Shown piece after piece: positions 3,395 through 50,110 of a stretch of 64,000 nt of DNA. The notes under the pieces are model-generated. The model made no database searches. It was not told the DNA's origin and was given only the letters and a program-made list of their open reading frames with translations. Numbering within the stretch: position 1 is the stretch's first letter; each line of letters starts with the position of its first letter. The DNA comes from Flavobacteriales bacterium (lineage in GTDB: Bacteria > Bacteroidota > Bacteroidia > Flavobacteriales_F > PHOS-HE28), in NCBI GenBank assembly GCA_038234075.1, contig JBBSUV010000003.1, positions 65,136 through 129,135 of the forward strand. The letters run 5' to 3'. Position numbers and translations under genes: made by a program.

Positions 3395-6025
3395 TCAAGA
3401 CTCCTCCACCTCCAGCAGCGCCGCAGGAATGAAGAACAAGTCCAGGTCGTGGTCGTAGGCCAGGAACTTATCGCTCCACGCGGGGCCGAACTTTTCCTTG
3501 AAGGAGCGCAAGCCCTTGTAGTGGGAGAAGCGTGCGATGCGCTCATAAGCGAATTTCAAGGCGCGCTCCGGGAGGTCCTTCGCTTGGGTGATGCCGGACA
3601 TGGGCACCAGCCCGAGGTTCACATGCGTGTAGCCTTCCGCCTTGAAGTGCGCGAAGAGCTTCACCATCAGGAAATCGGTGACGTAGCCCGGAGCATCCTC
3701 AACGGTGCGTAACAGGTCATAAGTAGCCTCGCCCGGCACACCGTCCGGAATGATGTTGGTGAAGGCCAACACACGGCCACCTTCATTCTCCACGGTCAGG
3801 ATCGTATCCTGCCGAAGCTGCGCCTCATCGTACACGCCTTGTGAGAAACCCGCTTCCTGCTTACCCGTTGCCAGCCATTCCGTGCTGACGGACTTCAACT
3901 TCTGGAGCACGCCATCGGACACCGGTGCTGGATAGGTCACCAGTACCAGCCCTTCGCGCTCCGCACGGCTCAGGCTATTGCGCAGCGTCTTCTGGTCCTT
4001 GCCCGCCAGATTGAACGAGGTGAGATCGAGCACGGCCTCTTGGCCGATCGGCAGGACCTTCTTGCCCATGGCCTTCAGTCTTGCAGCATCGGTGGCACCC
4101 ACCCGGTAGTACACCGGCCGCAGGTTGTTCTCCCGGCAATTAATGTCGAACGCATGCACCAACGCATCACGCTCCGCATCGGTCGCCGCCGTCGGCATGC
4201 CCAAGACGATCGCATAGCCCTTGGCCGTTCCGTACGAAACGAATCCTTGGCTGCCTTCGGGCAGGAACAGTTGCTTGTCCGCTAACAGCTTGAACTGGTC
4301 CAATGGCGAATCACCCCATTTCTGCAACATCGCCTTGGCCCTTTCGTGTTCCTCGCTGTCCGTGCTGCTGTCAGCGGTCCATGGGCGCCACAAGGCGTAA
4401 AGGCCGAAGGTGATCGCGCAGGCGAAGGCCACGCGCAGGCCCACGATGAACTCCTTGGCGAAGTGCGTATGCGCCACCAGCCCGTCCTGGCCGAATAGGA
4501 AGACGACCTTCAAGGTGTTCGCGATGGACTGGCGCAAGGTGAAGTCGATGTTGAAGTCGCGCCGATCGAGGAAATAAAAGCCCACGATACCGAAGACCAG
4601 CACGCCACCGATCGAGGCCACCAGCACGGTAATGCCGGTGTAGCGCTTGCGCCGATCGCCTTTCACGCGGTACTGAGCGTGTGTATAGAGCAGCACGAGG
4701 ACCATGATCAGTGCCAGGACGGCCCCCATTATGGCGAAGTGCTTACCGAGGTGTCCGACCATCGAGGCCAGCGCCAGCAGCAGTGCGAACCACCACGCCA
4801 GCCGCAAGCCGCGCACCAGCGCCACGGAGACGAAGAGCAGCAGCAACCCGGCAACCAGGATGGTGATCGAACTGGCATCGATGGTGGCCGAGGGGACCAG
4901 CCCGTGCAACACACGCATGCGGTGGGCAGCCGCAGGGCTTGCTGCGGAGACGATGTTCACCACGCCCAGGATCAATGCCATTAACGCAGGCAACAGGCGC
5001 AGCGTGAGGCTGCTGCGGCCGCGGATGAAGCTGAGCACACCCCAGACCAAGGGCAGCCAGAATTCGAACAAGCGGAAGAGTAGTACGGCGGCGAGCGCCT
5101 GTGCTTCATGCACTCCATAACGTGTAAGTACCACGGTCATCGATACCTCGATCGCGCCGAGGCCGCGCAGGAATGGTGAAGCGATCAACAGCAACACCGC
5201 CACCACATAGCCCACCGCCGCCAGCTCCCAATGCCCACCCAGGCCCAAGGCTTGCATCGCCACATAGAGGTGCGCCATGCCCACGAATTCGATCGCCATT
5301 GAGGCCAGAAGCGTTTTCACCACTTCGCTGCGTTTCACATGGCCTTGGCCCATTTCCTCCAGCACAGCGCCCAAGGAGGGATCCAACTTGGTCGCCCAGC
5401 GTGCCGCCCAGCCTTGGTGTGTCAGCGAGCGGACCAGCCACAACAACAAAACGATGAGCAGCACCAATGCGACAAAGGCGTAGGCGATATCGCTGGAAAG
5501 CCCATGGACCAGGAAGAGGTATCCCAGCACAGGGACCGCCACCACCACCACCGTTATCAGGCCAGCGATGGCGTAGATCGTGGAAGCGAAATGGATCACC
5601 GTTGGACGTTCCCCACGCTCCTCCAAACTGCGGGTGAACAAGGCGAGCGAGGTGAAGCCTCCTGCCGGAAGGAAGACGCTCGCCAGGTTTCTCCGCAGGT
5701 ACAGGTTCACCGCCTCGCCCCACGTGATCCTGCCGCCAACTGCGCGGAAGCCATACACATACATCGCCGCCTGCAACAGCACATAGACCACCATCAACAC
5801 CAAGCCGACCAGCACCCAGCCCGGCCTTGCAGCGCTGAGACCGTGGACGATACCATGCAGTTCATGCGGCTCGTGGCGGAAGAAATAGACAGCGAGCAAA
5901 ATGCTCATGATGCCCATTGTCACCTGGAACGCACGGCCCAGGTCCAAGCGCGCCCAAAGCGTTCTTAAGCGGGACATCCAGGGGTTCTGCCGTTTCCGAG
6001 GTTCATGGACCAAAGGCCGATTCAA
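3395..6025 (-). CDS. mprF: bifunctional aminoacyl-phosphatidylglycerol flippase/synthase (MprF family, lysyl/alanyl-PG synthase)
   Basis: 876 aa. There are about 14 predicted TM helices, followed by a C-terminal LPG-synthase (DUF2156) domain, QFKLLADKQLFLPEGSQGFVSYG...GDLLR-like, ending LAYDHDLDLFFIPAALLE. Confidence 0.75.
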   Translation of the reverse strand: MNRPLVHEPRKRQNPWMSRLRTLWARLDLGRAFQVTMGIMSILLAVYFFRHEPHELHGIVHGLSAARPGWVLVGLVLMVVYVLLQAAMYVYGFRAVGGRITWGEAVNLYLRRNLASVFLPAGGFTSLALFTRSLEERGERPTVIHFASTIYAIAGLITVVVVAVPVLGYLFLVHGLSSDIAYAFVALVLLIVLLLWLVRSLTHQGWAARWATKLDPSLGAVLEEMGQGHVKRSEVVKTLLASMAIEFVGMAHLYVAMQALGLGGHWELAAVGYVVAVLLLIASPFLRGLGAIEVSMTVVLTRYGVHEAQALAAVLLFRLFEFWLPLVWGVLSFIRGRSSLTLRLLPALMALILGVVNIVSAASPAAAHRMRVLHGLVPSATIDASSITILVAGLLLLFVSVALVRGLRLAWWFALLLALASMVGHLGKHFAIMGAVLALIMVLVLLYTHAQYRVKGDRRKRYTGITVLVASIGGVLVFGIVGFYFLDRRDFNIDFTLRQSIANTLKVVFLFGQDGLVAHTHFAKEFIVGLRVAFACAITFGLYALWRPWTADSSTDSEEHERAKAMLQKWGDSPLDQFKLLADKQLFLPEGSQGFVSYGTAKGYAIVLGMPTAATDAERDALVHAFDINCRENNLRPVYYRVGATDAARLKAMGKKVLPIGQEAVLDLTSFNLAGKDQKTLRNSLSRAEREGLVLVTYPAPVSDGVLQKLKSVSTEWLATGKQEAGFSQGVYDEAQLRQDTILTVENEGGRVLAFTNIIPDGVPGEATYDLLRTVEDAPGYVTDFLMVKLFAHFKAEGYTHVNLGLVPMSGITQAKDLPERALKFAYERIARFSHYKGLRSFKEKFGPAWSDKFLAYDHDLDLFFIPAALLEVEES

Positions 6026-7863: not shown

Positions 7864-9702
7864 ATGCCCTCTTCCATAGACGTCCGTGACAAGGTATCCC
7901 TGCTGCCCAACGGGCCCGGGGTGTATCAGTTCTATGACAGCGATGGCAAGATCCTCTACGTCGGCAAGGCCACCAACCTCAAGAGCCGCGTCAGCAGCTA
8001 CTTCGCGAAGAACCACCCCGACGGCAAGACCCGGGCGTTGGTGAGCCACATCGCCGACCTGCGCACCATCGTGGTGGAGACGCCCTATGATGCGCTGTTG
8101 CTGGAGAACTCACTGATCAAGGAATATCAGCCGCGCTACAACATCATGTTGCGCGACGATAAGAGCTATCCGTGGATCCGCATCCGCAACGAGCATTATC
8201 CGCGCATCGAGGGCATGCGCAATCCCGAGGACGATGGCTCGGAATACATCGGCCCCTTCGCCTCCGTGCGCGCAATGCGTACGCTGCTGAAGCTCGTACA
8301 TCAGCTCTATAAATTGCGCACCTGCAACTACGACCTCAGCCCGGCGAACGTCGCCAAAGGCAAGTACAAGCGCTGCCTGGAATACCACCTCGGCAACTGC
8401 AAGGCACCCTGCGAAGGATTGCAGGATGAGGCGGAGTACAACGCGAACGTCGCACAGGCCAGGCAATTGGTGAAAGGACGCATCAGCGGCGTGGTGCGGC
8501 TGCTGAAAGAGCAGATGCACGCCCATGCCGAAAAGCTCGAATTCGAGCAGGCCGAAGAGGTGCGCGATCAGCTCGAGCAGTTGGAGAAGTACCAGGCCCG
8601 CAGCACCGTGGTGAACCCGGACATCGGCGATGTGGACGTGTTCGGGCTGGCGCGGAACACCTTCAGCACCTACGTGAACTACCTGCGCGTGATCGATGGC
8701 GCCATCGTGCAAGGCATCACCATCGAGCTGAAACGCAAACTGGACGAACCGGACGACGAGGTGCTGCAATTCGCCATCGCCGAGCTGCGCCAGCGCTACC
8801 GCAGCAATGCGCCGGAAGCCATCGTGCCCATGGAGCCGGGCATCGACATGCCGGACCTGCGCTTCACCGTACCCCAACGCGGCGACAAAAAGCACCTGCT
8901 GGACCTGAGCGTGCGCAACGCTCAGTACTTCATGCTGGACAAGCAAAAGCAGGAATCACTGGTGGACCCCGAGGCGGCCACCAACCGCATCCTCGAACAG
9001 CTCAAGCAGGATCTGCGCCTCAGCGAGCTGCCGCGCCACATCGAATGCTTCGACAACAGCAACACCCAGGGCACCGACCCCGTGAGCGCCTGCGTGGTCT
9101 TCAAGGACGCCAAGCCCAGCAAGAAGGATTACCGCCACTTCAACATCCGCACGGTGGTAGGCCCGGACGATTTCGCCAGTATGGAAGAAGCCGTGGAACG
9201 ACGTTATGCACGGTTGGTGACAGAGGGCGAACCTCTGCCGCAACTCGTGGTGATCGATGGCGGCAAAGGCCAGTTGCACGCCGCACTGAACGTCTTCGAC
9301 CGGCTCGGCCTACGCGGGAAGATCGCTGTGGTGGGCATCGCGAAGAACCTCGAGGAGATCTTCTTCCCCGGCGATCCATATCCGCTTTACATCGACAAGC
9401 GCAGCACCAGCCTGCGACTGATCCAGCACATGCGCAACGAGGCGCACCGCTTCGGCATCACGCACCACCGCAGCAAGCGCAGCAAGCGCACCGTGCGCAC
9501 TGCTTTGGAGGACATCCCCGGAGTCGGCCCCGGCACCGCGCAGAAATTGCTCAAGCGTTTCGGCTCCATCAAAGGCATCCGTGAAGCGAGCAGCGAAGAG
9601 GTGGTAGCAGAGATCGGTGCGAAGAAGGCGGAGGTGGTGCTGAAGGGGTTGGCTGTGGTATCTTTGAATGAGACCCAAGCCAATGACCAAGCTCGACCTT
9701 AA
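7864..9702 (+). CDS. uvrC: excinuclease ABC subunit C
   Basis: The GIY-YIG N-terminus (PGVYQFYDSDGKILYVGKATNLKSRVSSYF), the UvrBC motif and the C-terminal (HhH)2 are present. The start is placed at the internal ATG 7864. The last ~18 codons are rewritten by the insertion at 9648. Confidence 0.9.
   Translation: MPSSIDVRDKVSLLPNGPGVYQFYDSDGKILYVGKATNLKSRVSSYFAKNHPDGKTRALVSHIADLRTIVVETPYDALLLENSLIKEYQPRYNIMLRDDKSYPWIRIRNEHYPRIEGMRNPEDDGSEYIGPFASVRAMRTLLKLVHQLYKLRTCNYDLSPANVAKGKYKRCLEYHLGNCKAPCEGLQDEAEYNANVAQARQLVKGRISGVVRLLKEQMHAHAEKLEFEQAEEVRDQLEQLEKYQARSTVVNPDIGDVDVFGLARNTFSTYVNYLRVIDGAIVQGITIELKRKLDEPDDEVLQFAIAELRQRYRSNAPEAIVPMEPGIDMPDLRFTVPQRGDKKHLLDLSVRNAQYFMLDKQKQESLVDPEAATNRILEQLKQDLRLSELPRHIECFDNSNTQGTDPVSACVVFKDAKPSKKDYRHFNIRTVVGPDDFASMEEAVERRYARLVTEGEPLPQLVVIDGGKGQLHAALNVFDRLGLRGKIAVVGIAKNLEEIFFPGDPYPLYIDKRSTSLRLIQHMRNEAHRFGITHHRSKRSKRTVRTALEDIPGVGPGTAQKLLKRFGSIKGIREASSEEVVAEIGAKKAEVVLKGLAVVSLNETQANDQARP
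9606..9647. repeat. 42-bp direct repeat copy 1 (inside uvrC 3' end)
   Basis: AGCAGAGATCGGTGCGAAGAAGGCGGAGGTGGTGCTGAAGGG is identical to 10221-10262. Confidence 0.9.
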
Positions 9703-9919
9703 GCAAGCCGCCATCGCCAAGCAGGTGTTCAACACTACGGACGAGCAGGTGCTGGACCAGGTGAAAGCCGTGCTTGAATCGCAGAGCGATACATGGTTCC
9801 AAAGCCTGCCCGCCAAAGTGCGCAAGGACATTGAGGCCAGCTTGGCCCAAGCGGATCAGGGAGAAACGGTGAGCCACAAGGAGGCCATGAAGCAGGTGCG
9901 GGCATCGCGAAAGAAGTAA
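9683..9919 (+). CDS. type II antitoxin (putative addiction-module component)
   Basis: The ORF is 78 aa and Lys/Glu-rich. It lies immediately upstream of a ParE/RelE-like toxin ORF. The start at MTKLDLK overlaps the uvrC stop. Confidence 0.5.
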   Translation: MTKLDLKQAAIAKQVFNTTDEQVLDQVKAVLESQSDTWFQSLPAKVRKDIEASLAQADQGETVSHKEAMKQVRASRKK

Positions 9920-9954
9920 GGTGGACGCCCAAGGCGATCGCCAACTACCTCGAT

Positions 9955-10221
9955 GTGCTGAAGTGGTTGCGTATTCACTGGACTGCCAAAGAGGAGCAGC
10001 GCTTCGTTGATGATGTGGAGAAGACGATCCGGTATATCCTGAAGTATCCGCAGGGCTTCCGTAGTGCTGGCCATGAGCGTTTGCGGGAGGCTCCGATCAA
10101 GCCATACAACCTGCTTCTTTATCGGATCGACGCGAAGGCCATTGTCATCATTGGCCTGTTCGATATGCGCAAGCACCCAAAGACGCTACGGGCGCTGAAA
10201 CGCGGTTGGTATAAAGAATAA
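9955..10221 (+). CDS. type II toxin, RelE/ParE family
   Basis: 88 aa; it resembles ParE-fold toxins (KPYNLLLYRIDAKAIVIIGLFDMRKHP). The frame is open upstream (..VRWTPKAIANYLD) without a canonical start, so the true start is uncertain. Confidence 0.55.
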   Translation: MLKWLRIHWTAKEEQRFVDDVEKTIRYILKYPQGFRSAGHERLREAPIKPYNLLLYRIDAKAIVIIGLFDMRKHPKTLRALKRGWYKE

Positions 10222-10262
10222 GCAGAGATCGGTGCGAAGAAGGCGGAGGTGGTGCTGAAGGG
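10221..10262. repeat. 42-bp direct repeat copy 2; the ancestral uvrC 3' end (..KGLTSVA*) follows it
   Basis: Perfect copy of 9606-9647; begins at the toxin stop codon. Confidence 0.9.
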
Positions 10263-10302
10263 ATTGACCTCAGTAGCGTGACCAAGCCACCACGCTTACC
10301 AT

Positions 10303-10680
10303 TCACGCAAGCTTCAGCCCCTTTATCCCCTTGAAGTGCTTCTGGTTCAAAGTGAGCAGCGAGCAATCGTGTGCCATGGAGGTGGCTGCGATGAGCTGAT
10401 CCGCAAAATGCACTCCCAGATCACGTGCCTCATGCGCCATAATGCCCCTGAAGTGCTGCGAAACCTCCATGGTGAACGGCAGAATGTGGAACTGCTTGTT
10501 CAATTCACGTTGGGTGGCATTGTACTCCGCCCTGTTGCGGACCCCGGCCAGCACCTCCGCCACCACGACATCGCAAAGCACCAGCTGTTGACCGGCCACT
10601 TTTTCCAAGGCCGCCATGGCCCGGGGCTCATTTCTGATACGACCTATCAGGATGTTGGTATCGATCAGGACCGCTTTCAT
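10303..10680 (-). CDS. vapC: PIN-domain toxin VapC
   Basis: 125 aa; MKAVLIDTNILI, conserved acidic residues, and the PIN fold consensus. Confidence 0.8.
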   Translation of the reverse strand: MKAVLIDTNILIGRIRNEPRAMAALEKVAGQQLVLCDVVVAEVLAGVRNRAEYNATQRELNKQFHILPFTMEVSQHFRGIMAHEARDLGVHFADQLIAATSMAHDCSLLTLNQKHFKGIKGLKLA

Positions 10681-10883
10681 GCGCGCTCACGCAATTCCTT
10701 CGCAGTAACGGGATTGTCCTTCCAGATCTCACTCAGCTTGGCGAATGGATCTTTCTCCTTTGCTGCCTCCCGCTCGATCAGTTCCACCACCAGCGCACTG
10801 ATGCTCTTGCCACGACGGCGGCTGAGCTTCCGGGCGGTAAGCTTGAACTTAACGGGAACGGACAGGGTGAGCTTTGTCGTCAT
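10677..10883 (-). CDS. VapB-type antitoxin
   Basis: About 68 aa from MTTKLTLSVPVKFKL. A 4-bp overlap with vapC gives the classic TA architecture. Confidence 0.6.
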   Translation of the reverse strand: MTTKLTLSVPVKFKLTARKLSRRRGKSISALVVELIEREAAKEKDPFAKLSEIWKDNPVTAKELRERA

Positions 10884-10960
10884 CGGAGTTACGTACGTGA
10901 TGACGAAGATACGTAACATGGTTCGCAGGTGTTACTTTGATCGCTGTATCGGACGTTAGC

Positions 10961-11959
10961 ATGCCAAAGGTCTCCGTCATCCTCCCCATCCACAACACGG
11001 CCTCCATGCTCGATGCCGCCGTCGCTAGCATTGCCGCACAGAGTTTCACGGACTTCGATCTGCTATTGATCGACAACGCATCCACGGACGAAAGCAACAC
11101 GATCGCCAAGCGTTGGGCTGAGAAGGATGATCGCATTCACTTGATCGAAGAACCGATCCTCGGCATCGCGCATGCGCTCAACACAGGACTCCTGCATGCT
11201 CAAGGCCGTTACATGGCCCGTATGGATGCCGACGATATCAGCCATCCGGAACGCTTTGCGAAGCAGGTCGCATACTTGGATGAACATCCGGAGATCGGCG
11301 TGTTGGGAACGCAAACAACGTTCAGCACAACCGTGGAAAAGAGCAGTGGCATGCGCTGGTTCACGCAGTGGCAGAATGCCATCCTATCGCCACATGACCA
11401 CTACGTGAAACGCTTCGTGGATGCGCCACTCGCACACCCTACCGTAATGTTCCGCCGCGAGCTGGTTGTACACCATGGGGGCTACAACATCAGTCCACTG
11501 CCTGAGGATCACGAGCTCTGGCTGCGCTGGATGGACGCTGGGGTGCGCTTTGCGAAACTGCCCGAGGAACTGCTCACTTGGAACGACCATGCGCAACGGC
11601 TGAGTCGCACGCATGATAATTACAGCGTGCATGCGTTTTTCACCACCAAGGCAAAGTGGCTCGCCAAATGGATGAAGCGGGAGTTGGATGGTCGTCCCAT
11701 CATCATCGCTGGCACCAGCGCTATGTGCCGCGATCGTGCACGAATGTTGGAGGCGGAAGGGATCAACGTTCACGCCTTCACAGATGTGAAGCCGCGCGTT
11801 GTTCCCAGTTATGCGTTCATACCGCACGGCGAGCTTCCGCCTTCGGGCGAAGCCTTTATCATCTCCTTCATTTCGCAGCGCGGCACCGGTGTTCGCATTG
11901 CGGAATTCCTTGTTTCGCGGGGACTTGTGGAAGGTGAGGATTTCGTTTTAGCGGCATAG
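10961..11959 (+). CDS. family 2 glycosyltransferase
   Basis: KVSVILPIHN, the DxD motif (MDADD) and the GT-A fold pattern are present. The start is placed at internal MPKVSV. Confidence 0.8.
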   Translation: MPKVSVILPIHNTASMLDAAVASIAAQSFTDFDLLLIDNASTDESNTIAKRWAEKDDRIHLIEEPILGIAHALNTGLLHAQGRYMARMDADDISHPERFAKQVAYLDEHPEIGVLGTQTTFSTTVEKSSGMRWFTQWQNAILSPHDHYVKRFVDAPLAHPTVMFRRELVVHHGGYNISPLPEDHELWLRWMDAGVRFAKLPEELLTWNDHAQRLSRTHDNYSVHAFFTTKAKWLAKWMKRELDGRPIIIAGTSAMCRDRARMLEAEGINVHAFTDVKPRVVPSYAFIPHGELPPSGEAFIISFISQRGTGVRIAEFLVSRGLVEGEDFVLAA

Positions 11960-30553: not shown

Positions 30554-33307
30554 ATGCCTACATCCGAACCCACTCAAGAGCATTTTAATGCCACCCGGCT
30601 TCGCACGCATACGTGGGACCATCTGAAAACAGCCGTCTCCGAGTTGGCGGTGGCCAAGTCCGGCACGAGCGGATCCGTGAGCGAGGTGGACGCATTACTC
30701 GAGGATCTGCAAGTGATCGAACAGTACTGGGCCTTTCCCGGAAGGGATGCGGTCCAGGGCCTTCGCAACATGCTTGCACGCAAAGAATATGCGGCACTGG
30801 AATCGCGGGTTTTGAAACTTGTGCGCACGTTGGTGAGCGGCCAGGTCCGGTTGAACACGGGCGAACAGGAGGAGCATGCACTGGACCACGAGGATGATAG
30901 CCAGGAACGCCCACGCACGAAGTATTTCGAGGTGCTCTTCGTGGACGACCTGAGCGAGAAGGAGGAACGCGAGCTGAAGGCGAACCTCGCCGATGTCAGG
31001 GAGCCCAACGATCCCTTCACTTATGATGTCATCGTGGTGCCCACGGTGCAGGACGCCCTCATCGCGCTGCTCTTCAACTCCAACATCCAGGCGTGTGTGA
31101 TCCGATACGGCATGCCCTTCGCCTCGGAAAACGCCAAGGGGTTCCTGAAGGACTACATCCGTGCTATCACAGAGGTGGACCTCAGTGATCGCAACAAGGC
31201 GGACATGGGGCCACTTCTCGGCAAGCTCATGCGCTGGTTCCGCCCGGAGGTGGACCGCTACTACGTCACCGACACGCCCGTGAGCGACCTGAAAGACACG
31301 ACGGTGCAGAACTTCCGCCGGATCTTCTACCGTCAAGAGGATCATCAAGAACTGCACCTCAACCTGCTAAGAGGTGTGCAGGAGAAGTACGATACGCCCT
31401 TCTTCACGGCACTGATGGACTACAGCCGCCGGCCAATGGGCGTGTTCCATGCCATGCCGATCTCGCGTGGCAACTCGGTGTTCAAGAGCCGTTGGATCCA
31501 GGACTTCGGTGACTTCTATGGTCGCAACCTCTTTCTCGCGGAGACCTCCAGCACCAGCGGTGGATTGGACTCGTTGCTTCAACCGACCGGCCCGCTGAAG
31601 AAGGCGCAGGAACGCGCCGCGCGCGCTTTCGGGGCACAATTCACCTACTTCGCCACCAATGGCACAAGCACTAGCAACAAAATCGTGCTCCAAGCGCTGG
31701 TGGAGCCGCACGACATGGTGCTGATCGACCGCGATTGCCACAAGAGCCACCACTACGGCTTGGTGCTTTCCGGCGCCTACCCGGTTTATCTCGACAGCTA
31801 TCCGCTACCGGACTACAGCATGTACGGGGCGGTGCCGTTGGAGGTGATCCGGGAAAAGCTGCTCGAGCTGAAACGTGCCGGACGCCTTCACCATGTGAAG
31901 ATGCTGCTGCTCACCAACTGCACCTTCGACGGCGTGGTTTACAACGTGCAGCGCGTGATGGAACAGGTGCTCGCCATCAAGCCGGACATGATCTTCCTCT
32001 GGGATGAGGCTTGGTTCGCCTTCGCGGGCTTCAGCTACATCTTCAAGCAGCGCACCGCCATGTTCAGCGCCGCTCGCCTGCACCGCAAGTACCACAGCGA
32101 TGCCTACCGCGAGGAATACAACGCACACATCGCCTCATTGAAAAAGGGCGAAGAGCCGCGCATGCCCGACCCCGACAAGGTGCGCATCCGCGTCTACGCC
32201 ACGCAGAGCACGCACAAGACACTTACGTCCATGCGCCAGGGCAGCATGATCCACATCTGGGATGAGGACTTCCGCCGCAAGAGCGAGGACAGCTTCCACG
32301 AGGCCTACATGGCGCACACCAGCACCAGCCCCAATTACCAGATCCTCGCCAGCCTCGACGTGGGCCGCAGGCAAGTGGAATTCGAGGGCTACGAGCTGGT
32401 GGAAAAGGCGATCGAGCAAGGCATGCTGCTGCGCCATAAGATCAACGACCACCCCAAGCTGCGGCGCTATTTCGACGTGGTGACCTTGGAAGACCTCGTG
32501 CCCGCCAAGTTCCGTCCCAGTGGGCTGAGGGAATATTATACCAAGGAGAAAGGTTGGAACAGGATCGAGGAGGCTTGGGCGAACGACGAGTTCACCGTGG
32601 ACCCCACCAAGATCAACCTGTACACTGGCAAGACGGGCGTGGACGGTGACACCTTCAAGAACCGGTACTTGATGGACAAGCACCAGATCCAGGTGAACAA
32701 GACCTCGCGCAACAGCGTGTTGTTCATGACGAACATCGGCACCACGCGCGGCTCCGTGGCCTACCTGATCAAGGTGCTCCTCACCATCGCCGACGAGCTG
32801 GAGGCGCGCAACAACGCGCTGAACCACGCCGAGAAGCAACTGCACATCGCACGCATCCGTTCACTCACACAGGAAACGCCACCACTACCGGATTTCAGCC
32901 GCTTCCACGATTCCTTCCGCGCAGTGCCCGGTGTGCCCGGCGGCGACCTGCGCAAGGCCTACTTCCTCTCCTACAACGAGCTGAACTGTGAGTATGTGAA
33001 GATCCGCGATTGCCATGGTAGGATGTGCGATGGGCGTGAGCTCGTCTCGGCCAGCTTCGTCATCCCCTACCCGCCCGGCTTCCCCGTGTTGGTGCCCGGC
33101 CAAGTGGTGAGCAAGGACATCCTCGACTTCCTCATCGCCATCGACGTGAAGGAAATACATGGCTATCGCGAAGATCTGGGCCTGCGCGTGTTCAACGATC
33201 ATGCGCTGGGAAGGCAGCGGACCGGGACCGCTATGGGCGGAATGCGGATCCCAGCGCCGCAGGAAAACGGTAACTCTACAAGTTCGAGCAAGAAGAAAAA
33301 AGCATGA
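30554..33307 (+). CDS. fold-type I PLP-dependent Orn/Lys/Arg decarboxylase family protein with long N-terminal extension and receiver-like wing domain
   Basis: 917 aa. The OKR_DC_1 major domain has TNGTSTSNKIVL and the PLP-lysine motif YATQSTHKTL. A receiver-like wing domain is present (YFEVLFVDD...DVIVVPTVQDALIALL). An extra ~130-aa N-terminal segment precedes it. Confidence 0.75.
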   Translation: MPTSEPTQEHFNATRLRTHTWDHLKTAVSELAVAKSGTSGSVSEVDALLEDLQVIEQYWAFPGRDAVQGLRNMLARKEYAALESRVLKLVRTLVSGQVRLNTGEQEEHALDHEDDSQERPRTKYFEVLFVDDLSEKEERELKANLADVREPNDPFTYDVIVVPTVQDALIALLFNSNIQACVIRYGMPFASENAKGFLKDYIRAITEVDLSDRNKADMGPLLGKLMRWFRPEVDRYYVTDTPVSDLKDTTVQNFRRIFYRQEDHQELHLNLLRGVQEKYDTPFFTALMDYSRRPMGVFHAMPISRGNSVFKSRWIQDFGDFYGRNLFLAETSSTSGGLDSLLQPTGPLKKAQERAARAFGAQFTYFATNGTSTSNKIVLQALVEPHDMVLIDRDCHKSHHYGLVLSGAYPVYLDSYPLPDYSMYGAVPLEVIREKLLELKRAGRLHHVKMLLLTNCTFDGVVYNVQRVMEQVLAIKPDMIFLWDEAWFAFAGFSYIFKQRTAMFSAARLHRKYHSDAYREEYNAHIASLKKGEEPRMPDPDKVRIRVYATQSTHKTLTSMRQGSMIHIWDEDFRRKSEDSFHEAYMAHTSTSPNYQILASLDVGRRQVEFEGYELVEKAIEQGMLLRHKINDHPKLRRYFDVVTLEDLVPAKFRPSGLREYYTKEKGWNRIEEAWANDEFTVDPTKINLYTGKTGVDGDTFKNRYLMDKHQIQVNKTSRNSVLFMTNIGTTRGSVAYLIKVLLTIADELEARNNALNHAEKQLHIARIRSLTQETPPLPDFSRFHDSFRAVPGVPGGDLRKAYFLSYNELNCEYVKIRDCHGRMCDGRELVSASFVIPYPPGFPVLVPGQVVSKDILDFLIAIDVKEIHGYREDLGLRVFNDHALGRQRTGTAMGGMRIPAPQENGNSTSSSKKKKA

Positions 33308-35034
33308 GCAAGAAGAATTTGAAAAAGGCCGCGGCGACCAAAGTGAAGCCTGCTCCAGCCAATAAGAAGGTCGTTGCAAAGAAGAAAGCGGCCACCCCTT
33401 CTCGAGCGATCACCAAGGCCGTGGCCCAAAAGCCACCCGTGGCGAAGCGGGCCGCTGCCAAAAAGAAGGCCGGCCCCGCTGCCCGAACGGCCACCAAGGC
33501 CGTGGTCAAAAAGCGCCCTGTAGTGAAGCGCGCTGTCGCCAAAAAGAAGGCCGGTGCACGCAAGAAGAAAACCGGTCCTTCAGTCCTGCGCGGCGTCAGT
33601 GACATCCGGCGTTTTTTCCACCGCAACGAGACGCCGATCTACTTCATCAGCGCCACCAACTTCAATCTGCTTGGCGCGGACGAATGGATCAAGGGCTTCA
33701 AGTTCATCACCTACATCGACTGCTTCGATGGGATGCATCCCAACCTGATGAGCCCGCAGAACGAGCAGCCGCACGCCGAGTTCCAGAGCATCGAGGACAT
33801 CAACAACTACCTGCTCACCCACAGCACGGTGAAGGACTACATCGAGAAGCGGAAGAAGGGGAAGAGCGCGGGAAAGGCCCTCTTCCTCATGTTCGACGAG
33901 GAGACTGAAAAGCGTGCGCGGAAGCTGGGCTTGGACGTGATCTTCCCCAGCGCCAAGATGCGCACCTTCATGGACAACAAGGTGAACACCAACCGCGTGG
34001 CTGAGAAGGCCGGCGTGCCCTGTGTGCCCTATGTGCTCAGCCCGGTGAAGAACTATGCGCACCTCAATAAGGTGTCGGCGAAGCTTGGCAACGACCTCGT
34101 GTTGCAAACGCCCTTCGGCGATAGCGGCCATACCACCTTCTTCATCAGCAACGAGACGGAATACCGCAAGTATGCCAAGGAGATCGAGGCCGAGAAGGAG
34201 TGCAAGATCATGAAGCGCATCAATTGCCGCGGCGCGGCGATGGAGGCTTGCGTCACGCACCACGGTACGATCGTGGCCCCGCTCATGACCGAGCTGGTGG
34301 GCTTCAAGGAACTGACCCCGTACAAGGGAGGCTGGTGCGGCAACGAGATCTATGCCGAGGCCTTCACGCCCACCATCCGCCGCAAGGCCCGGAAATATGC
34401 GCAGCTCTTCGGCGACCAGCTCCGCAAGGAAGGCTACAAGGGCTACTTCGAGCTGGACTTTCTCATCGACCAGGACAATGGCGAGATCTACCTCGGCGAG
34501 TTGAACCCGCGCATCACCGGCGCCAGTAGCATCACCAACCACGCGGCCTTCGCCATGAGCGACGCGCCGCTCCACCTTTTCCACATCCTGGAATGGATGG
34601 ACAGGCCATACACGCTGAACGTGAACGGGCTGAACCGCCGCTGGGCCAATGCCGAGAACATCGACTCTTGGGGCCAGATGGTGATCAAGCACACCGTGGA
34701 CGACATCCGCAGCGTTACTGAGGCGCCTCGTAGCGGCATCTGGCACATGCGGCCCGACGGTAGCATCCAGTTCCTGCGCATGGACACCCATCGCCGCTAC
34801 GTGGAGACCGAGGACGAGGCCTTCTTCCTTCGCATCACACGCGTGGGCGACTGGCTTTACGAAGGTGCCGACATGGGCATCCTCGTGATGCGCGGCCGGA
34901 TGATGACCGATGAATTCGAACTGCTCGAGCGTTCCAAGAAATGGCTGAAGGCGATCAAGGCGCAGTACAAGAGCGTGTCGCCCGGGGAGGATAAGACCGG
35001 GCCTTTAGAGATCGGTGGTTTCAAGATGATGTGA
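33304..35034 (+). CDS. ATP-grasp family ligase with ~110-aa histone-H1-like Lys/Ala/Pro-rich N-terminal tail
   Basis: 576 aa. The N-terminus is made of KKAAATKVKPAPANKKVVAKKKAA.. repeats. The ATP-grasp core follows (VLQTPFGDSGHTTFFI..., GYFELDFLIDQDNGEIYLGELNPRITGAS). The ATG overlaps the decarboxylase stop as ATGA. Confidence 0.65.
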   Translation: MSKKNLKKAAATKVKPAPANKKVVAKKKAATPSRAITKAVAQKPPVAKRAAAKKKAGPAARTATKAVVKKRPVVKRAVAKKKAGARKKKTGPSVLRGVSDIRRFFHRNETPIYFISATNFNLLGADEWIKGFKFITYIDCFDGMHPNLMSPQNEQPHAEFQSIEDINNYLLTHSTVKDYIEKRKKGKSAGKALFLMFDEETEKRARKLGLDVIFPSAKMRTFMDNKVNTNRVAEKAGVPCVPYVLSPVKNYAHLNKVSAKLGNDLVLQTPFGDSGHTTFFISNETEYRKYAKEIEAEKECKIMKRINCRGAAMEACVTHHGTIVAPLMTELVGFKELTPYKGGWCGNEIYAEAFTPTIRRKARKYAQLFGDQLRKEGYKGYFELDFLIDQDNGEIYLGELNPRITGASSITNHAAFAMSDAPLHLFHILEWMDRPYTLNVNGLNRRWANAENIDSWGQMVIKHTVDDIRSVTEAPRSGIWHMRPDGSIQFLRMDTHRRYVETEDEAFFLRITRVGDWLYEGADMGILVMRGRMMTDEFELLERSKKWLKAIKAQYKSVSPGEDKTGPLEIGGFKMM

Positions 35035-45974: not shown

Positions 45975-47105
45975 CTAATCTCTACGCTTATTAACCTCTG
46001 CTTCCATCCGGGCTAGATTCACGCTCTTGCGATCATTGTCAGCCTTTAGGATTTTAGTGAGCTGTTGCACAAACATTGATGTATCTGCATAATAGTTCGG
46101 ATAGGCCTTCTTAAGGGCTTGGACAGACCCTGCCGATACAAGCACCACTTGGACACCTTTCTTGCCTCTGGTGCGTTCTTCCGCCTCCTCATATCGCTCA
46201 GTTGCTATGGCACTCTCTCTTTTAGAGAAGCCCGTCACAGTGAGGATTTTGCTATCCGGATCAAGTACCATCAAGTAGTACTCAGCTCGTTTAAGTTCAG
46301 GAGGAAGCTTGAAGAGCGCACTGAAGTTCATGAGCTTCGCTGCCACATTCAAATGCAAAGACAGACTAGCTGTTTCCTTTATCAATTCAACTGGATCAGT
46401 GGGTACTCCTTCAATTGCACTTTCAGTCTTTTCCTCAATCGCAAAAACCGAACTAACCAGCTGAAAGAATCGGTCCCATTCCGGTTCGCCTCTGCCGCTC
46501 TTGATCGCCGTTCCGTTCATAGTATCAACCGTCTCCACAGCAGTTGCCCAACAGTGCTGAAGGTGAGTTCGGAGTTGAATTTCGACTAGCTGGTCATCAA
46601 AAACATCGGTGGAGGATCCTTTGTATTTGTAAATGAGGTGGACACTCCTGTATCCGGATTTCTTCGGCTTAATCAAGTAGTTGTCAATCTTGACCAACTC
46701 ATGATCAATTGTTGCCGTCGACCGGTAGTAGTTCAGAATATCATTCACTTGCTTCATGTCTGATACAATGGCCCTACATCCGGCTATATCCTGCATTCGC
46801 TTCAGGCTCATGTGCTGTTGCTCCCGCAGTTTATTCAGTATTGAGGGTGTCCGCTTGAGTCGTTGAGCAACAATCGCTGTCCGACCGAACTTCCTAGCAA
46901 CCCAACGAAGTGTTACTTGGAATGTGTTCATCGGATAACTGTGGCAAGCCCTCCAATTGTCAAGTACTTCTTGTGCGTAAAGCCTTTCAGCCTCAGTAAT
47001 ATCCTCAGTTATCAGGAGCTTCCCAGCCTTTTCGATCTGATTGCGAGAATACTTACGCTCTGCCCAGTTTGCCATACTCCTTAGTGTCTTGGCAAGATAG
47101 AACAA
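45975..47105 (-). CDS. RelA/SpoT-domain nucleotidyltransferase with C-terminal extension (fused toxSAS / CapRel-like defence candidate)
   Basis: 376 aa in a locally low-GC segment. The synthetase motifs are DIAGCRAIV, SGYRSVHLIY and EIQLRTHLQHCWA. There is no hydrolase domain. The C-terminal domain is ~170 aa and uncharacterised. Confidence 0.7.
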   Translation of the reverse strand: MFYLAKTLRSMANWAERKYSRNQIEKAGKLLITEDITEAERLYAQEVLDNWRACHSYPMNTFQVTLRWVARKFGRTAIVAQRLKRTPSILNKLREQQHMSLKRMQDIAGCRAIVSDMKQVNDILNYYRSTATIDHELVKIDNYLIKPKKSGYRSVHLIYKYKGSSTDVFDDQLVEIQLRTHLQHCWATAVETVDTMNGTAIKSGRGEPEWDRFFQLVSSVFAIEEKTESAIEGVPTDPVELIKETASLSLHLNVAAKLMNFSALFKLPPELKRAEYYLMVLDPDSKILTVTGFSKRESAIATERYEEAEERTRGKKGVQVVLVSAGSVQALKKAYPNYYADTSMFVQQLTKILKADNDRKSVNLARMEAEVNKRRD

Positions 47106-47126
47106 TGCATCGTGAATATCCCATCT

Positions 47127-47192
47127 CCCACGCTCGGCTGGGTCAACAATATTTCCAGGCGCTCGGCTAAACGATAACCTCCCGGACCTGCC
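47127..47192 (+). repeat. island direct repeat copy 1 (~70 bp)
   Basis: CCCACGCTCGGCTGGGTCAACAATATTTCCAGGCGCTCGGCTAAACGATAACCTCCCGGACCTGCC. It is the most divergent copy and lies just 5' of the RelA/SpoT gene. Confidence 0.7.
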
Positions 47193-47399
47193 ACATGCCG
47201 TCCGGCGAACCGTCGGCCATCAAGGTCACGACATCAAGGTGCTCTCCCCCTCCGTCCCGCCGTTCGTTCTGAAAGCGCTTACACAGTTGGGATATGCCTA
47301 GAGTACGAGTGAAGAAGCTCGCGCCAGAGAGGGGGTGAAGACGTACGAGCTAGGACAGACTTGCAACTCGTAATGCTGATCCGAGGGCACGGGTCCAGA

Positions 47400-48650
47400 T
47401 CATTTGACTACAACGGTTTGCACCACTGTACTACCCGCATTCTGGACGCGCAACGAATACGTGCCCTTGGCAAACCTTGAAAGGTCGATCAACCGAATGT
47501 TTCTGGTCCCATTGCCGTTGAAGACCTCATTCTGCACCAACTGCCCCTTCACGTCGAAGACTTGCAGTGAGACCAAGCCCGACAGCTCTGTTTCCAATGT
47601 GAACTGGCCGGCATTAGGATTTGGGTAGACCCGGACGTTCCCGTTGACCGACATTTCATTCCCGTTGATCCCTTCACCGAGATCAACTGTGGTACAAAGG
47701 CCAGCGGTGTTGATGCATCCGTCCACATCGACATAGGTATAGGTCACACTGTGGGTTCCAACACCCGCCATTCCAGGGTCGAAAGTGCTACCGGATACCC
47801 CTGGGCCGATAAAGATACCTCCAGCAGGAACCCCAATCAATTCAACAATGCCATCAGTTGTGGTGTAAGATGCATCTAGACCAGTAAGGGAAACCGGCGT
47901 CTGACTACGACACGGGGATGCGGGCGTACCAGAGAACAGCCCCGTGATTTCTTGTTGGGATAATGCCCGGTCCCATATGCCAATATCGTCGATCAGTCCG
48001 CCAAATCCATCGAAGCCGGATATCGATTTCCTACCAATGTTCCAAGTTGTAGTAGTGCTTAATGGTGCATTGTTAATGCCTGTGTCTGTAAGGACACCAT
48101 CAATATATAGCGCGGCCTCACCGGCATTATAGTCAGAAGTGAATAAAATGTGGTGCCATTCGTATTTTGTAATTGCGAAAGTGGATGGCCATACTTGAGA
48201 ACCGGACGCGGCATATGAACATTTGATTGTTACCGTCGAGCCTATATCACTATTTACTATTATCCCTGGCTCACCGGAGGAGATTACTCTCGAATTGCTT
48301 GTAGCTGCGTCAAACCACACCCAACAGGAGATTGAGATTCTATCTGGCGACAGTTGGGGTAACGTACCTAAATCAATATAGTTGGAGCTGCTTAAGGAGT
48401 TGGGCCAGCTATAGGCACTATTCGAACTCCCAAAACGATCACTGGTTAGTGTGAGGGCTCCATTCACAGTTCCGTTATTCCCTGATCCGCTTTCATCATT
48501 CGCATCACCATTGAATGGCCACCAACCAACAAGGCCATTGGTGGGGATATAACTAGGGACTTGCGCAAACGCAAGGTTTGACAATACAATGATGGCAAGT
48601 GTTGCTAAGAGTGTCCTTCTTGCTCCCATTTTGGGTTTGTTTTGTTTCAA
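47400..48650 (-). CDS. secreted LamG/concanavalin-like domain protein with type-A T9SS C-terminal sorting domain
   Basis: Signal peptide (LLATLAIIVLSNLAFAQ), a LamG-like region, and a C-terminal Por_Secre_tail (VYPNPNAGQFTLE...GTYSLRVQ). Confidence 0.65.
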   Translation of the reverse strand: MKQNKPKMGARRTLLATLAIIVLSNLAFAQVPSYIPTNGLVGWWPFNGDANDESGSGNNGTVNGALTLTSDRFGSSNSAYSWPNSLSSSNYIDLGTLPQLSPDRISISCWVWFDAATSNSRVISSGEPGIIVNSDIGSTVTIKCSYAASGSQVWPSTFAITKYEWHHILFTSDYNAGEAALYIDGVLTDTGINNAPLSTTTTWNIGRKSISGFDGFGGLIDDIGIWDRALSQQEITGLFSGTPASPCRSQTPVSLTGLDASYTTTDGIVELIGVPAGGIFIGPGVSGSTFDPGMAGVGTHSVTYTYVDVDGCINTAGLCTTVDLGEGINGNEMSVNGNVRVYPNPNAGQFTLETELSGLVSLQVFDVKGQLVQNEVFNGNGTRNIRLIDLSRFAKGTYSLRVQNAGSTVVQTVVVK

Positions 48651-48747
48651 TCAGATTGGTGGGGACTATACGGTTTTGGCTGGAGAGATAATCCAACATT
48701 GGTCGAATGTAGTGCAATGACGTACAAGCGAGCAAATTACCCTCGAA

Positions 48748-48822
48748 CCCCACGCTCGGCTGCGTCATCAATAGTTCCCGGCGCTCGGCTCAACGATAAC
48801 CTCACAGACCTGCCGAGTGCCC
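48748..48822 (+). repeat. island direct repeat copy 2 (~75 bp)
   Basis: CCCCACGCTCGGCTGCGTCATCAATAGTTCCCGGCGCTCGGCTCAACGATAACCTCACAGACCTGCCGAGTGCCC, followed by a GC hairpin. Confidence 0.75.
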
Positions 48823-49002
48823 AGTTCTTTTCCGCCGAGCCTGCCCCGGAGCCGCATCCGGGGGCGGGCTCCGCCGATCTTGCCATTCAATCTCTCCTTC
48901 CTTAGGGCATGCGCGTGGTCCGAGGCATATTGGACCCGCCCAGCGTCAAGAACAACCCCTTAACTTTACGTCTCAACCATCCGTCAGACTGACCAACAAG
49001 CC

Positions 49003-49242
49003 ATGACCACTCTAGAGCTAAGGGCCGAGATCAACCAGTTGCTGAGCCACGAGAACAACACTTCCGTGCTGGAGGCGATACGTATGCTTTTGCGCAGGGA
49101 AGAAGCGGATGTTGATGATGACTTCACCGATGAGGAGATCGCCGAGCTCGAGCAACGCCGCGCGCGCTATCTGAGCGGAGAGAGTAAGCCCCATACCGTG
49201 GAAGAATCCATGCGTCTTGCACGCGAAGGGTTCAAGCGGTGA
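49003..49242 (+). CDS. type II antitoxin (addiction-module component)
   Basis: 79 aa; acidic; 4-bp overlap with downstream ParE-like toxin. Confidence 0.55.
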   Translation: MTTLELRAEINQLLSHENNTSVLEAIRMLLRREEADVDDDFTDEEIAELEQRRARYLSGESKPHTVEESMRLAREGFKR

Positions 49243-49529
49243 ATTTCACGGTTCAAGTCCTACCGGAAGCTACTGAGGAGGTCGGGGTGATCTTCGGCTA
49301 TTATGAAGACAAAAAATCCGGTTTGGGGAAACGCTTTCAACAAGCACTGAACGCGTGTTACGAGGATCTGGCGCTCGATCCGTGGAGGCAGAAGCGCAAG
49401 GGCGTTTTCCGGCATGCCATGATCCAAAAGTTCCCCTATCGCGTGGTGTATGAAGTTCATGGCAAACGTGTGATCGTTTACCAAGTGCGCCACACCAGCC
49501 GCAAACCCAGTAAGAAGTTCGGGCCGTAA
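49239..49529 (+). CDS. type II toxin RelE/ParE family
   Basis: 96 aa; KFPYRVVYEVHGKRVIVYQVRHTSRKP. Confidence 0.65.
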   Translation: MNFTVQVLPEATEEVGVIFGYYEDKKSGLGKRFQQALNACYEDLALDPWRQKRKGVFRHAMIQKFPYRVVYEVHGKRVIVYQVRHTSRKPSKKFGP

Positions 49530-49554
49530 TCACAGGCTGACCAAGCCGCTGAGG

Positions 49555-49628
49555 AGACCCCATCCCCGCGCTCAGCTGGGTCAACAATAGTTCCCGGTGC
49601 TCGGCTCAACGATAACCTCACAGACCTG
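49555..49628 (+). repeat. island direct repeat copy 3 (~74 bp)
   Basis: CCCCGCGCTCAGCTGGGTCAACAATAGTTCCCGGTGCTCGGCTCAACGATAACCTCACAGACCTGCCGAGTGCCC, followed by a CCGCC..GGCGG hairpin. Confidence 0.75.
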
Positions 49629-49801
49629 CCGAGTGCCCGGCTCCTGTCCGCCTCTGGCGGGCTCTGCGATACGGATATGAGTGTTGAAGATGGCCGGTGG
49701 CCGCAAGAGTTGGGCACTCGGGAACTCCGGATGAGACTCCGGGGCCGAGCGCCGGGTTCAGAGAGACTCTGCGTTCCGGACGGGCCAAACTGTCATAGCA
49801 C

Positions 49802-50110
49802 TCAACGCCTTCTTTCTTCAAACCGGCTTTTCAGGTCCATCCTTTCGTGTAGGACCCTGATGATCTCGATCTCCAGTTCGTTCAAGGCCATGAAGAATAC
49901 GATATGCCGACCGGTGCGCACTCCTTTCAGGCCCGCACGGATCTCGTCATAGTTCCTGCCTGAACCAGGGTTGTCGGCCAATTCTTGAAAAGCATCCAAA
50001 AAATCCCGGTAGTATTTGTCTGCTTGCTTTTCTGACCATCGATCGAATGTGAAATTCCAGATGTCCCCTAGATCTCCGATAGCCTTGTTAGAGAGGATAT
50101 ACCTACCCAT
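49802..50110 (-). CDS. parE: type II toxin ParE
   Basis: 102 aa; MGRYILSNKAIGDLGDIWNFTFDRWSEKQADKYYRDF...GRHIVFF. Confidence 0.75.
   Translation of the reverse strand: MGRYILSNKAIGDLGDIWNFTFDRWSEKQADKYYRDFLDAFQELADNPGSGRNYDEIRAGLKGVRTGRHIVFFMALNELEIEIIRVLHERMDLKSRFEERRR

Follow-up and report, generated by a model that had tools for sequence, protein, structure and literature searches.

A ParE/RelE-family toxin-antitoxin cassette in the 3' end of uvrC, flanked by a long duplication of its target, in uncultured Flavobacteriales

A 64,000-nt stretch of a contig from a Flavobacteriales bacterium (GenBank assembly GCA_038234075.1, contig JBBSUV010000003.1, positions 65,136 to 129,135 of the forward strand; hereafter the window) carries a minimal type II toxin-antitoxin (TA) cassette in the last codons of uvrC, and the piece of uvrC at the point of insertion is present on both sides of it. 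Comparison with related genomes confirmed that the TA pair was inserted into the 3' end of uvrC and that part of the target was duplicated, because empty sites in relatives run uvrC straight into the next gene, which encodes a GT2 glycosyltransferase (referred to as GT2). A first-pass annotation, made from the letters of the window alone, had proposed an insertion with duplication of a uvrC piece, and the empty sites together with a displaced original uvrC end in one relative now bear this out. It had also described the locus as an insertion event caught at single-nucleotide resolution, but a pristine event it is not: the same junctions occur in lineages with 74-88% toxin DNA identity, and the two copies differ there.

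The exact 42-mer AGCAGAGATCGGTGCGAAGAAGGCGGAGGTGGTGCTGAAGGG occurs on the + strand at 9606-9647 and 10221-10262 only, with 0 mismatches, and 0 of 100 dinucleotide-preserving shuffles gave a match, in agreement with the direct repeat first annotated. Beyond the 42-mer, the identity of copy 1 and copy 2 extends as 45/46 through 'NTTG'. The copies are separated by 573 bp (period 615), and this interval holds an antitoxin gene and a toxin gene only (a 78-aa open reading frame (ORF) and a ParE_toxin ORF), so that the earlier count of exactly one pair stands.

Relatives were obtained by a UvrC scan with one genome per species, covering 55-92% identity; all those compared are metagenome assemblies, and the closest are all uncultured Flavobacteriales or Bacteroidota (loci are given L numbers). 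In L001, with a UvrC 92% identical to that of the window, the uvrC stop overlaps the GT2 start, the cassette and a second, unrelated TA pair that follows it in the window are both absent, and the 42-mer has one counterpart (37/42), with flanks syntenic to the window. Eight relatives (L001, L003-L007, L011 and L013), down to 65% UvrC identity, have uvrC followed by GT2, and where it follows, the aldehyde dehydrogenase gene, without TA genes; this adjacency identifies uvrC, GT2 and aldehyde dehydrogenase as a deep ancestral order. The aldehyde dehydrogenase gene follows GT2 in the window as well. TA-free uvrC tails stop 3-10 residues past '(K/R)(G/S/A)L', and the long ..VSLNETQANDQARP tail of the window is found in none of the TA-free relatives compared, which favours insertion. 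The empty sites expected in related uvrC 3' ends were thus found, but none of them has the ..VVLKGLTSVA end that had been foreseen. Past its toxin stop, L109 reads ..IGTKKAEVVLKGLAVAE and a stop codon (..KGLAVAE), abutting the GT2 ATG as in the empty sites. Where the uvrC-GT2 junction holds other cargo, in L008 and L010, no duplicate of the uvrC tail accompanies it, so the site by itself does not account for the duplication.

Both copies and the same junctions were found in six further assemblies, representing five further lineages (L081, L083/L084, L108, L110 and L112). The independent metagenome-assembled genome (MAG) L081 has an identical layout, with copy 1 exact and copy 2 carrying one substitution. 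In L083/L084, L108, L110 and L112, uvrC on the + strand reads into the antitoxin gene, and a second copy of the uvrC tail lies past the toxin gene; orthologues of copy 2 were recognized in L083, L108, L109, L110 and L112. Because the independent assemblies L081, L083, L084, L108, L110 and L112 carry both copies, the repeat is not an assembly quirk. The window itself appears to come from a metagenome-assembled contig, in which a chimera could produce a false repeat, but with the same junctions in six assemblies from different samples we give this explanation practically no weight.

At the right junction, GC(A/G)GAG(A/G)TC.. directly follows the toxin stop in the window, L081, L083 and L112, and 3-6 drifted bases follow it in L108 and L109. 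All lineages, including L110, share the left junction ..GTGG/TATCTTTG. Identity to the window in the sharing lineages is 74-88% for toxin DNA, 81-92% for the antitoxin, 80-92% for adjacent uvrC and 69-88% for GT2, and copies 1 and 2 are 81-95% alike in the other lineages (L083 34/42, L112 31/37, L110 122/129). Since the junctions are shared by lineages as diverged in toxin DNA as in the flanking core genes, the insertion is old, and the cassette has been at the locus for about the time over which these lineages have diverged. The linkage of the TA pair with GT2 is kept where uvrC alone is inverted (L085-L089: lipB(-) uvrC(-) TA(+) GT2(+)). In L090-L093, uvrC lies elsewhere, on another contig, and the gene ahead of the TA pair is hemerythrin-like (L092 is from the same MAG as L002). 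The TA-GT2 linkage thus outlives that of uvrC and the TA pair. Alignments of relics beside TA pairs with an inverted or absent uvrC to the own uvrC tail were weak (L085 p=0.02; L086 and L090 p=0.07-0.9) and are not relied on; in L085, BLAST homology to the window takes in 6 nt of copy 1 and 11 nt of copy 2.

The edge of the insert, first placed at 9647/9648, had to be moved. Homology to all other cassette copies starts at TATCTTTG, a sequence of the form TAnnTTTG, and TA..TTTG is invariant across all TA copies, some 17 nt ahead of the antitoxin ATG, regardless of the upstream sequence. TAnnTTTG is the consensus of the flavobacterial sigma-A -7 box (PMC9723704), and TATCTTTG may act as the promoter of the cassette. 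A scan for sigma-70 promoters and intrinsic terminators gave no match, with models that are not informative for Bacteroidota, and an Rfam search of the window gave none either. Native KGLAV.. tails (L001, L085, L086, L109) match the copy-1 side of the window up to 9658 (8/10 in L001). Because cassette homology begins at TATCTTTG and the native tails match to 9658, we place the true left junction at 9658/9659. This was settled by L109, which past its toxin stop reads ..ATCGGCACGAAGAAGGCGGAGGTGGTGTTGAAGGGATTGGCCGTGG/CTGAGTGA (around the junction, AAGGGATTGGCCGTGG/CTGAG), where the window counterpart reads ..AAGGGGTTGGCTGTGG/TATCTTTG. The alignments thus give an original duplicated target of about 53 nt, not 42, of which the window retains 42/42 and then 5/11. 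L110 shares the left junction, at the same position; its right junction lies 87 nt further 5' in uvrC, and its duplication covers at least 129 nt (122/129). Probably, the original duplication was longer, at least 129 nt as in L110, and was trimmed in the group of the window.

As first annotated, the current uvrC reads through copy 1 into the insert, where it ends ..KGLAVVSLNETQANDQARP before its stop; the frame through copy 2 reads AEIGAKKAEVVLKGLTSVA and a stop. Native uvrC sequence reaches 9658 (..KGLAV), and the last 14 codons, VSLNETQANDQARP, are read from the cassette promoter/leader and the first antitoxin codons in another frame. The HHH_5 match ends at residue 626 of the 644-aa ORF, and the HhH domain is intact. 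The reported overlap of the antitoxin gene with the end of uvrC is real, but the ATG (9683) lies 17 nt upstream of the stop (9700-9702), giving a gene overlap of 20 nt in which start and stop codon are not shared. A further claim, that ..KGLTSVA after copy 2 is the ancestral uvrC end, found no support: no relative reads it, it matches the copy-1 side at 5/11, and native tails read KGLAV... It is a drifted, decayed relic. The sequence after copy 2 (10263-10302) has partial homology to its counterpart in L083.

A young duplication should be identical throughout, and an old, unhomogenised one diverged throughout; 42/42 followed by 5/11 fits neither. Other lineages show identity in patches, with 25/26 inside the 34/42 of L083, a perfect run of 27 nt in L108 and 31/37 in L112. 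Lineage-specific variants are present in both copies of a genome (GAGGT. and GCCGA in L083; GAAGTGGGGGAG in L110), which points to gene conversion or recombinational re-formation. Over a 35-nt core, copies 1 and 2 of the same genome differ by 0, 4, 1, 3 and 7 mismatches in five lineages (mean 3.0), and the mean between genomes is 7.5 for copy 2 against copy 2 and 4.6 for copy 1 against copy 1. Copy 2 of L110 has 3 differences to its own copy 1 and at least 8 to every other copy 1. Drift between the window and L083 in the relic after copy 2 far exceeds that of copy 2 itself. From these patterns, we infer that copy 2 has been corrected against the selected copy 1 by homologous recombination, through conversion in place or re-formation upon transfer. 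The perfect 42/42 of the window would thus result from recombinational homogenisation, not from youth.

These observations also bear on a fresh de novo insertion, in which copy 2 and LTSVA would be the intact ancestral end. The 42/42 identity and the existence of empty sites are what it predicts, but identical junctions are present in lineages 12-26% diverged in toxin DNA, identity stops 11 nt short of the real junction (5/11), LTSVA is in no relative and the toxin already carries a lesion; a recent spread from the window lineage is excluded by the toxin identity of 74-88%. We therefore regard a fresh insertion as very improbable. A pattern of swapped tails, in which the copy-1 tail of the window resembled the copy-2 tail of L083 and the reverse, was based on one or two sites and was dropped.

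The cassette has a second target. The same TA family (toxin 73-76% protein identity) lies downstream of the xanthine dehydrogenase (XDH) large-subunit gene of a purine-catabolism cluster in L098, L099 and L101. In L099, the last 104 nt of the XDH gene (971-1074, stop included) are repeated at 1701-1804, from the first base past the toxin stop; L101 has a duplication of 48+ nt (45/48 over the core) and L098 one of about 150 nt plus a further duplicated block. Overall, the target duplication at the XDH locus is put at 104-157 nt. Empty XDH sites were found in L113 (XDH 96% identical) and L114, and against the empty site L099 matches 97/104 with copy 1 and 77/104 with copy 2. An insert with target duplication accordingly recurs with this cassette and is no isolated case at uvrC.

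The uvrC tail (9627-9651) and the XDH tail (L101 70-92, L099 1042-1064) share CGGAG..GGTG(C/T)TGA.GGGGTTG, up to 20/23 nt, with p ~0.002-0.03 in some lineage pairs and no likeness for L098 and L085; we treat it as a weak lead. Transfer of the cassette between uvrC and XDH by way of this motif is contradicted by each locus duplicating its own sequence. A 35-nt repeat flanking the pair in L100 was likewise rejected as a target duplication, being a dispersed element resembling repetitive extragenic palindromes (REP) that occurs in several loci. This REP-like element (core GCCGCTGCTATCCCTCACG; ..GFPLLSLT.. in spurious ORFs) is intergenic in L100 (2706, 3353), L010, L012, L098 and L099, and can mimic a flanking target duplication. 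In L113, the XDH large-subunit gene and the adjoining DUF6986 gene (3704-5044) are each called in short pieces, possibly as pseudogenes or through assembly frameshifts.

With moderate confidence, we interpret the locus as an old insertion with long target duplication whose repeats were later homogenised. A minimal type II TA unit, from -7 box to toxin stop (~560 bp), was inserted long ago into the last uvrC codons in the ancestor of a clade of uncultured Flavobacteriales, duplicating at least 53 nt and probably at least 129 nt of the target. The upstream copy stayed the working end of uvrC, with 14 extra codons and a stop inside the antitoxin gene, and the downstream copy is the displaced original end, still abutting GT2 in the cleanest relative. 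Most likely, the first insertion was illegitimate and mediated by the host, for instance through fill-in at a staggered break or a template switch that returned upstream. The addictive cargo would then have fixed the insertion in place, and deletional trimming to the minimal functional unit would explain why the cassette ends sharply, at the -7 box on one side and at the stop codon on the other. Thereafter, copy 2 would have been corrected repeatedly against copy 1, by intrachromosomal gene conversion or by re-formation on block transfer.

Several points weigh against this account. The case for gene conversion draws on tracts of 35-129 nt in five independent lineages, of which two are ties, and the statistics are thin. 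The 11 nt beside the left junction are unhomogenised despite lying within the original homology. On the left, copy 1 and the high-identity block shared by the window and L081 have coincident edges (9593-9606 for the block), and horizontal arrival of a block explains this at least as well as conversion in situ. A clear copy 2 is missing in L094, and neither L086 nor L090 has a relic that reaches significance. The toxin could be assigned neither to ParE (gyrase) nor to RelE (ribosome), as a Foldseek search of the PDB returned nothing below E=5 and PDB profile searches were empty or spurious. For restriction-modification (RM) systems, too, the primary mechanism of long target duplication is not established (PMC2853133).

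The edge coincidence leads to the rival explanation of a recent arrival, in which the cassette, or the block 9606-10952, would have entered from a related genome by homologous recombination (Campbell or ends-in at the uvrC tail), and a fragment or excised circle with a uvrC-tail homology arm would have regenerated identical copies while keeping the old junctions. The block with both TA pairs (9603-10952) is 97-100% identical between the window and L081, compared with 81-94% in the flanks (uvrC 93.7%, GT2 87.6%), and its edge lies within 13 nt of that of copy 1; lipB and the 5' end of uvrC are ~98% identical. The picture is one of a strongly mosaic core, shuffled by recombination, around an accessory block that was shared more recently. 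Recent arrival would further explain that both copies bear the lineage-specific variants of the host uvrC and that copy 2 at the XDH locus resembles the tail of a different XDH allele than the resident one. However, the young block includes the second TA pair outside the repeats, for which simple movement of a TA circle is insufficient, and no circle or tandem form was seen. A homology of 42-53 bp is close to the minimum that RecA-dependent exchange needs, and mosaic flanks are also expected if core genes recombine more often than the accessory block. Overall, we consider recent arrival possible, although we would not expect it.

Site-specific integration was considered as well. Here, a non-autonomous element like a cis-mobilizable element (CIME) would be integrated by a tyrosine or serine recombinase acting in trans, with the repeats as attL and attR and ..GGTG(C/T)TGA.GGGGTTG as core. 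In its favour, elements that integrate at the 3' end of a gene and rebuild it have this geometry, the resemblance between the uvrC and XDH tails reaches 20/23 nt (p=0.002-0.03 in some lineage pairs), and the cassette has sharp ends (-7 box, toxin stop) at two loci. Against it, no integrase or transposase was found within ~10 kb (a Pfam scan of the larger ORFs, 0.4-20.6 kb, gave housekeeping genes only) and no recombinase in any of >20 related loci. The duplication length varies (42/53, 104, >=129, ~150 nt), each locus duplicates its own sequence far past the motif, the motif likeness is absent in L098 and L085, and sharp ends are equally explained by selection trimming all but the functional unit. 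Folding of the repeat region into a hairpin or attC-like structure was no better than that of shuffles on either strand (z = 0.25, -0.07, 0.93), a repeat scan found no terminal inverted repeats at the cassette ends, and no relatives were found in viral contigs. Site-specific integration is accordingly improbable.

The old insertion with later homogenisation can be set beside known systems. Insertion with long target duplication has been described for RM gene complexes (Nobusato et al. 2000, Gene 259:99; Furuta, Abe & Kobayashi 2010, PMC2853133), where it is recognized by a duplication >30 bp, an insert <20 kb, no mobility genes and repeats that align to a single copy in an empty genome (PMC2853133). 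Direct repeats in those cases are variable, from 46 to ~420 bp, and often span the stop or start of the neighbour, so that the gene survives (PMC2853133). The present loci have duplications >30 bp (42 exact; ~53 originally; >=129 in L110; 104-157 at XDH) and an insert <20 kb that holds a complete module, with no integrase, transposase or mobile element linked, and the repeats align to a single copy in insert-free genomes at both uvrC (L001) and XDH (L113, L114). In both systems a small addiction-type module without a mobility gene lies between direct repeats of variable length. Instead of an RM system, however, the insert carries a ParE/RelE-family type II TA pair; as the class is defined by geometry, this widens the range of cargo and membership stands. 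Differences are also that Bacteroidota are not among the RM examples, that the event here is old and multi-lineage with repeats in concerted evolution, and that uvrC is not perfectly restored but gains a 14-aa neo-C-terminus. Authors of the RM work have speculated on DNA breakage and on a cycle of insertion, repeat-mediated amplification and release (PMC2853133, PMC3874152); carrying over the idea that DNA breakage by the cargo drives insertion hinges on the toxin being a gyrase poison.

Other insertion types resemble the locus less. With integrative elements at gene 3' ends (tRNA, tmRNA and protein genes) and CIMEs it shares repeats derived from the 3' end of the target and a displaced end on the far side; it differs in having no integrase at or near any locus, a variable duplication and no core beyond the weak 20/23 likeness, so that neither a cognate recombinase nor a common att core is seen. 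DNA transposons and miniature inverted-repeat transposable elements have terminal inverted repeats and a short, fixed duplication, whereas here there are no such repeats and the duplication varies from 42 to >=129 nt. Chromosomal integrons carry TA cassettes as promoter-proximal minimal TA units, which act as stabilising cargo in variable gene arrays. The present cassette is also such a promoter-proximal minimal unit, but it has no attC-like structure (z about 0) and no intI, and its repeats are coding sequence of the target. Campbell-type single-crossover integration would likewise give an insert flanked by a target duplication, both copies of which can become host-specific. It differs in requiring that the toxin stop and mid-uvrC be joined in a circle beforehand, and could therefore explain spread or re-formation, not the first event; no circle was observed. 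No report of long target duplication for type II TA modules was found in the literature searched, an absence that is not proof of novelty. Taken singly, TA modules, ParE/RelE toxins and long target duplications are familiar; the extension to a new cargo class, at two loci and with concerted evolution of the repeats, is modestly surprising.

The toxin and its partner were recognized by family and context. The toxin has 41 homologues, most with a precomputed PF05016 assignment, and the antitoxin 35, each next to a toxin; in every locus examined, the upstream partner is adjacent to the toxin gene and overlaps it. A profile match and an overlapping, co-occurring partner are thus present, whereas an intact, expressible toxin is not. 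The family toxin has 105 aa, an N-terminus reading MAKEVRWTPKA and a 16-nt overlap with the antitoxin. In the window its start is ATC (9904-9906), against ATG in all intact relatives, and ATC would be a very weak initiator at best. The first canonical start, a GTG at 9955, gives 88 aa, with 17 N-terminal residues lost. Both this defect and the neighbouring second TA pair had escaped the first-pass annotation. The responsible C9906 (G in L081) also changes a nearly invariant tryptophan of the antitoxin (W75) to serine. Toxin lesions occur elsewhere, as a nonsense mutation in L094 and frameshifts in L102/L103, L104 and L106, always with intact antitoxins, and are the ordinary decay of chromosomal TA modules. 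Having lost its toxin start codon, the module in the window has probably ceased to be addictive and could now be deleted by way of the 42-bp repeats. PADLOC and NCBIfam gave no matches for either protein, and AlphaFold2 models of toxin and antitoxin were poor (predicted local distance difference test, pLDDT, 59.7 and 54.7); toxicity is presumed. Within the toxin ORF, GTGCTGAAGTGGTTG (9955-9969, codons VLKWL, containing the first GTG) matches the right end of the repeat plus TTG (GTGCTGAAGGGGTTG, UvrC VLKGL) at 14/15, either a chance likeness of coding sequences or a small conversion patch.

The spread of chromosomal TA modules without a visible mobile element is poorly explained, and long target duplication has been unexplained for RM systems since 2000. 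The present locus shows the same geometry for a type II TA module at two unrelated targets, both with empty sites and with graded lineages, and suggests that long target duplication belongs to addiction modules generally and not to DNA-cutting cargo. The graded duplication lengths (42/53, 104, >=129, ~150 nt) and degrees of homogenisation form a natural experiment. Perfect flanking repeats do not date an insertion; here they flank an old one with a decaying toxin. The locus also supplies testable junctions for excision, conversion and re-integration: if excision is repeat-mediated, the circle or tandem junction would read from the toxin 3' end through the 42-mer into GTTGGCTGTGGTATCTTTG, and a precise deletion would read from uvrC ..GAAGAGGTGGT through the 42-mer into ATTGACCTCAGTAGCGTGA.

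A further, rather doubtful reading is that the duplication is the means by which the cassette moves. Recombination between the repeats would free a ~0.6-kb circle (or lysis would free fragments) with the target tail as homology arm. Just as doubtfully, integration into empty sites, without a recombinase, would regenerate identical repeats, with addiction enforcing retention. If true, this would be a recombination-parasitic mobile TA cassette, extending to type II TA modules the 'virus-like life cycle' hypothesised, and never shown, for RM systems, and the TA pair at 49.0-49.5 kb might be included in this mode. Coordinates of the locus and of the other features mentioned are given in Table 1.

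Table 1. Features of the uvrC-GT2 region, of the second addiction-gene islet and of related loci (window positions unless a locus is named)
Feature	Position	Strand	Remarks
uvrC	7864-9702	+	612 aa; TIGR00194, E=1e-156; GIY-YIG, UVR, RNase-H-like and HhH domains; same gene extent in L081
Repeat copy 1	9606-9647	+	Live uvrC codons (V)AEIGAKKAEVVLKG; exact 42-mer; 37/42 to the single copy of L001
Target-derived remainder, copy-1 side	9648-9658	+	GTTGGCTGTGG, codons L A V; ends at the left junction 9658/9659
Putative -7 promoter box	9659-9666	+	TATCTTTG (TAnnTTTG); first conserved cassette bases at every locus
Putative antitoxin gene	9683-9919	+	78 aa; alternative in-frame ATG at 9668; no Pfam/NCBIfam family; S75 for the nearly invariant W
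ParE/RelE-family toxin gene	9904-10221	+	PF05016, 33.3 bits against a cut-off of 23, E=7e-8; last base of TAA shared with copy 2
Repeat copy 2	10221-10262	+	Displaced non-coding uvrC tail; exact 42-mer; 1 substitution in L081
Decayed rest of displaced uvrC end and spacer	10263-10302	+	ATTGACCTCAGTAGCGTGA, reading LTSVA and stop; spacer runs to the vapC stop
Second, unrelated TA pair	10303-10919	-	PIN/VapC 10303-10680 (PF01850, 8e-17); DUF6364/VapB-like antitoxin 10677-10919 (PF19891)
GT2 glycosyltransferase gene	10961-11959	+	PF00535, 2e-30; direct follower of uvrC in empty-site genomes (L001, L003-L007, L011, L013)
Antitoxin-like/RelE-ParE-like pair	49003-49529		Within islet 45975-50900
ParD/ParE-like pair	49802-50354	-	Within islet 45975-50900
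YoeB-like ORF	50524-50793		Within islet 45975-50900
Variable-spot cargo in related loci	L008 5797-6627; L010 5635-6907; L083 3256-3966; L086 3481-4050; L081 1449-1829

The second TA pair, VapC with a VapB-like antitoxin, adjoins the displaced uvrC tail. It is absent from L001, present in L081, where VapC is shortened by a 1-nt indel (window position 10622), and diverged in L094. The repeat scan found no duplication flanking it, and it is part of the same accessory block as the ParE-family cassette. The uvrC-GT2 junction and the lipB-uvrC spacer are a generally variable spot across lineages, holding, by lineage, a 250-aa membrane protein, a 313-aa HNH-like protein, DUF2071, a 189-aa ORF or a PDDEXK_3 gene.

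A second islet of addiction genes at 45975-50900 comprises a RelA/SpoT-like gene, a gene for a secreted 416-aa protein, two TA-like pairs and a YoeB-like ORF. An element of ~89 nt occurs there in three direct copies (47126-47214, 48748-48836 and 49564-49652), and copies 2 and 3 (90% identical) bracket the pair at 49003-49529. Serial insertion with long target duplication might account for these copies, as might a dispersed repeat confined to this area. Elsewhere in the window, a 3942-aa ORF (52151-63979, - strand) consists of ~40 tandem units of 264 nt (88 aa), and an 81-nt tandem Lys/Ala-rich repeat (33364-33525) stands at the start of the ORF 33304-35034.

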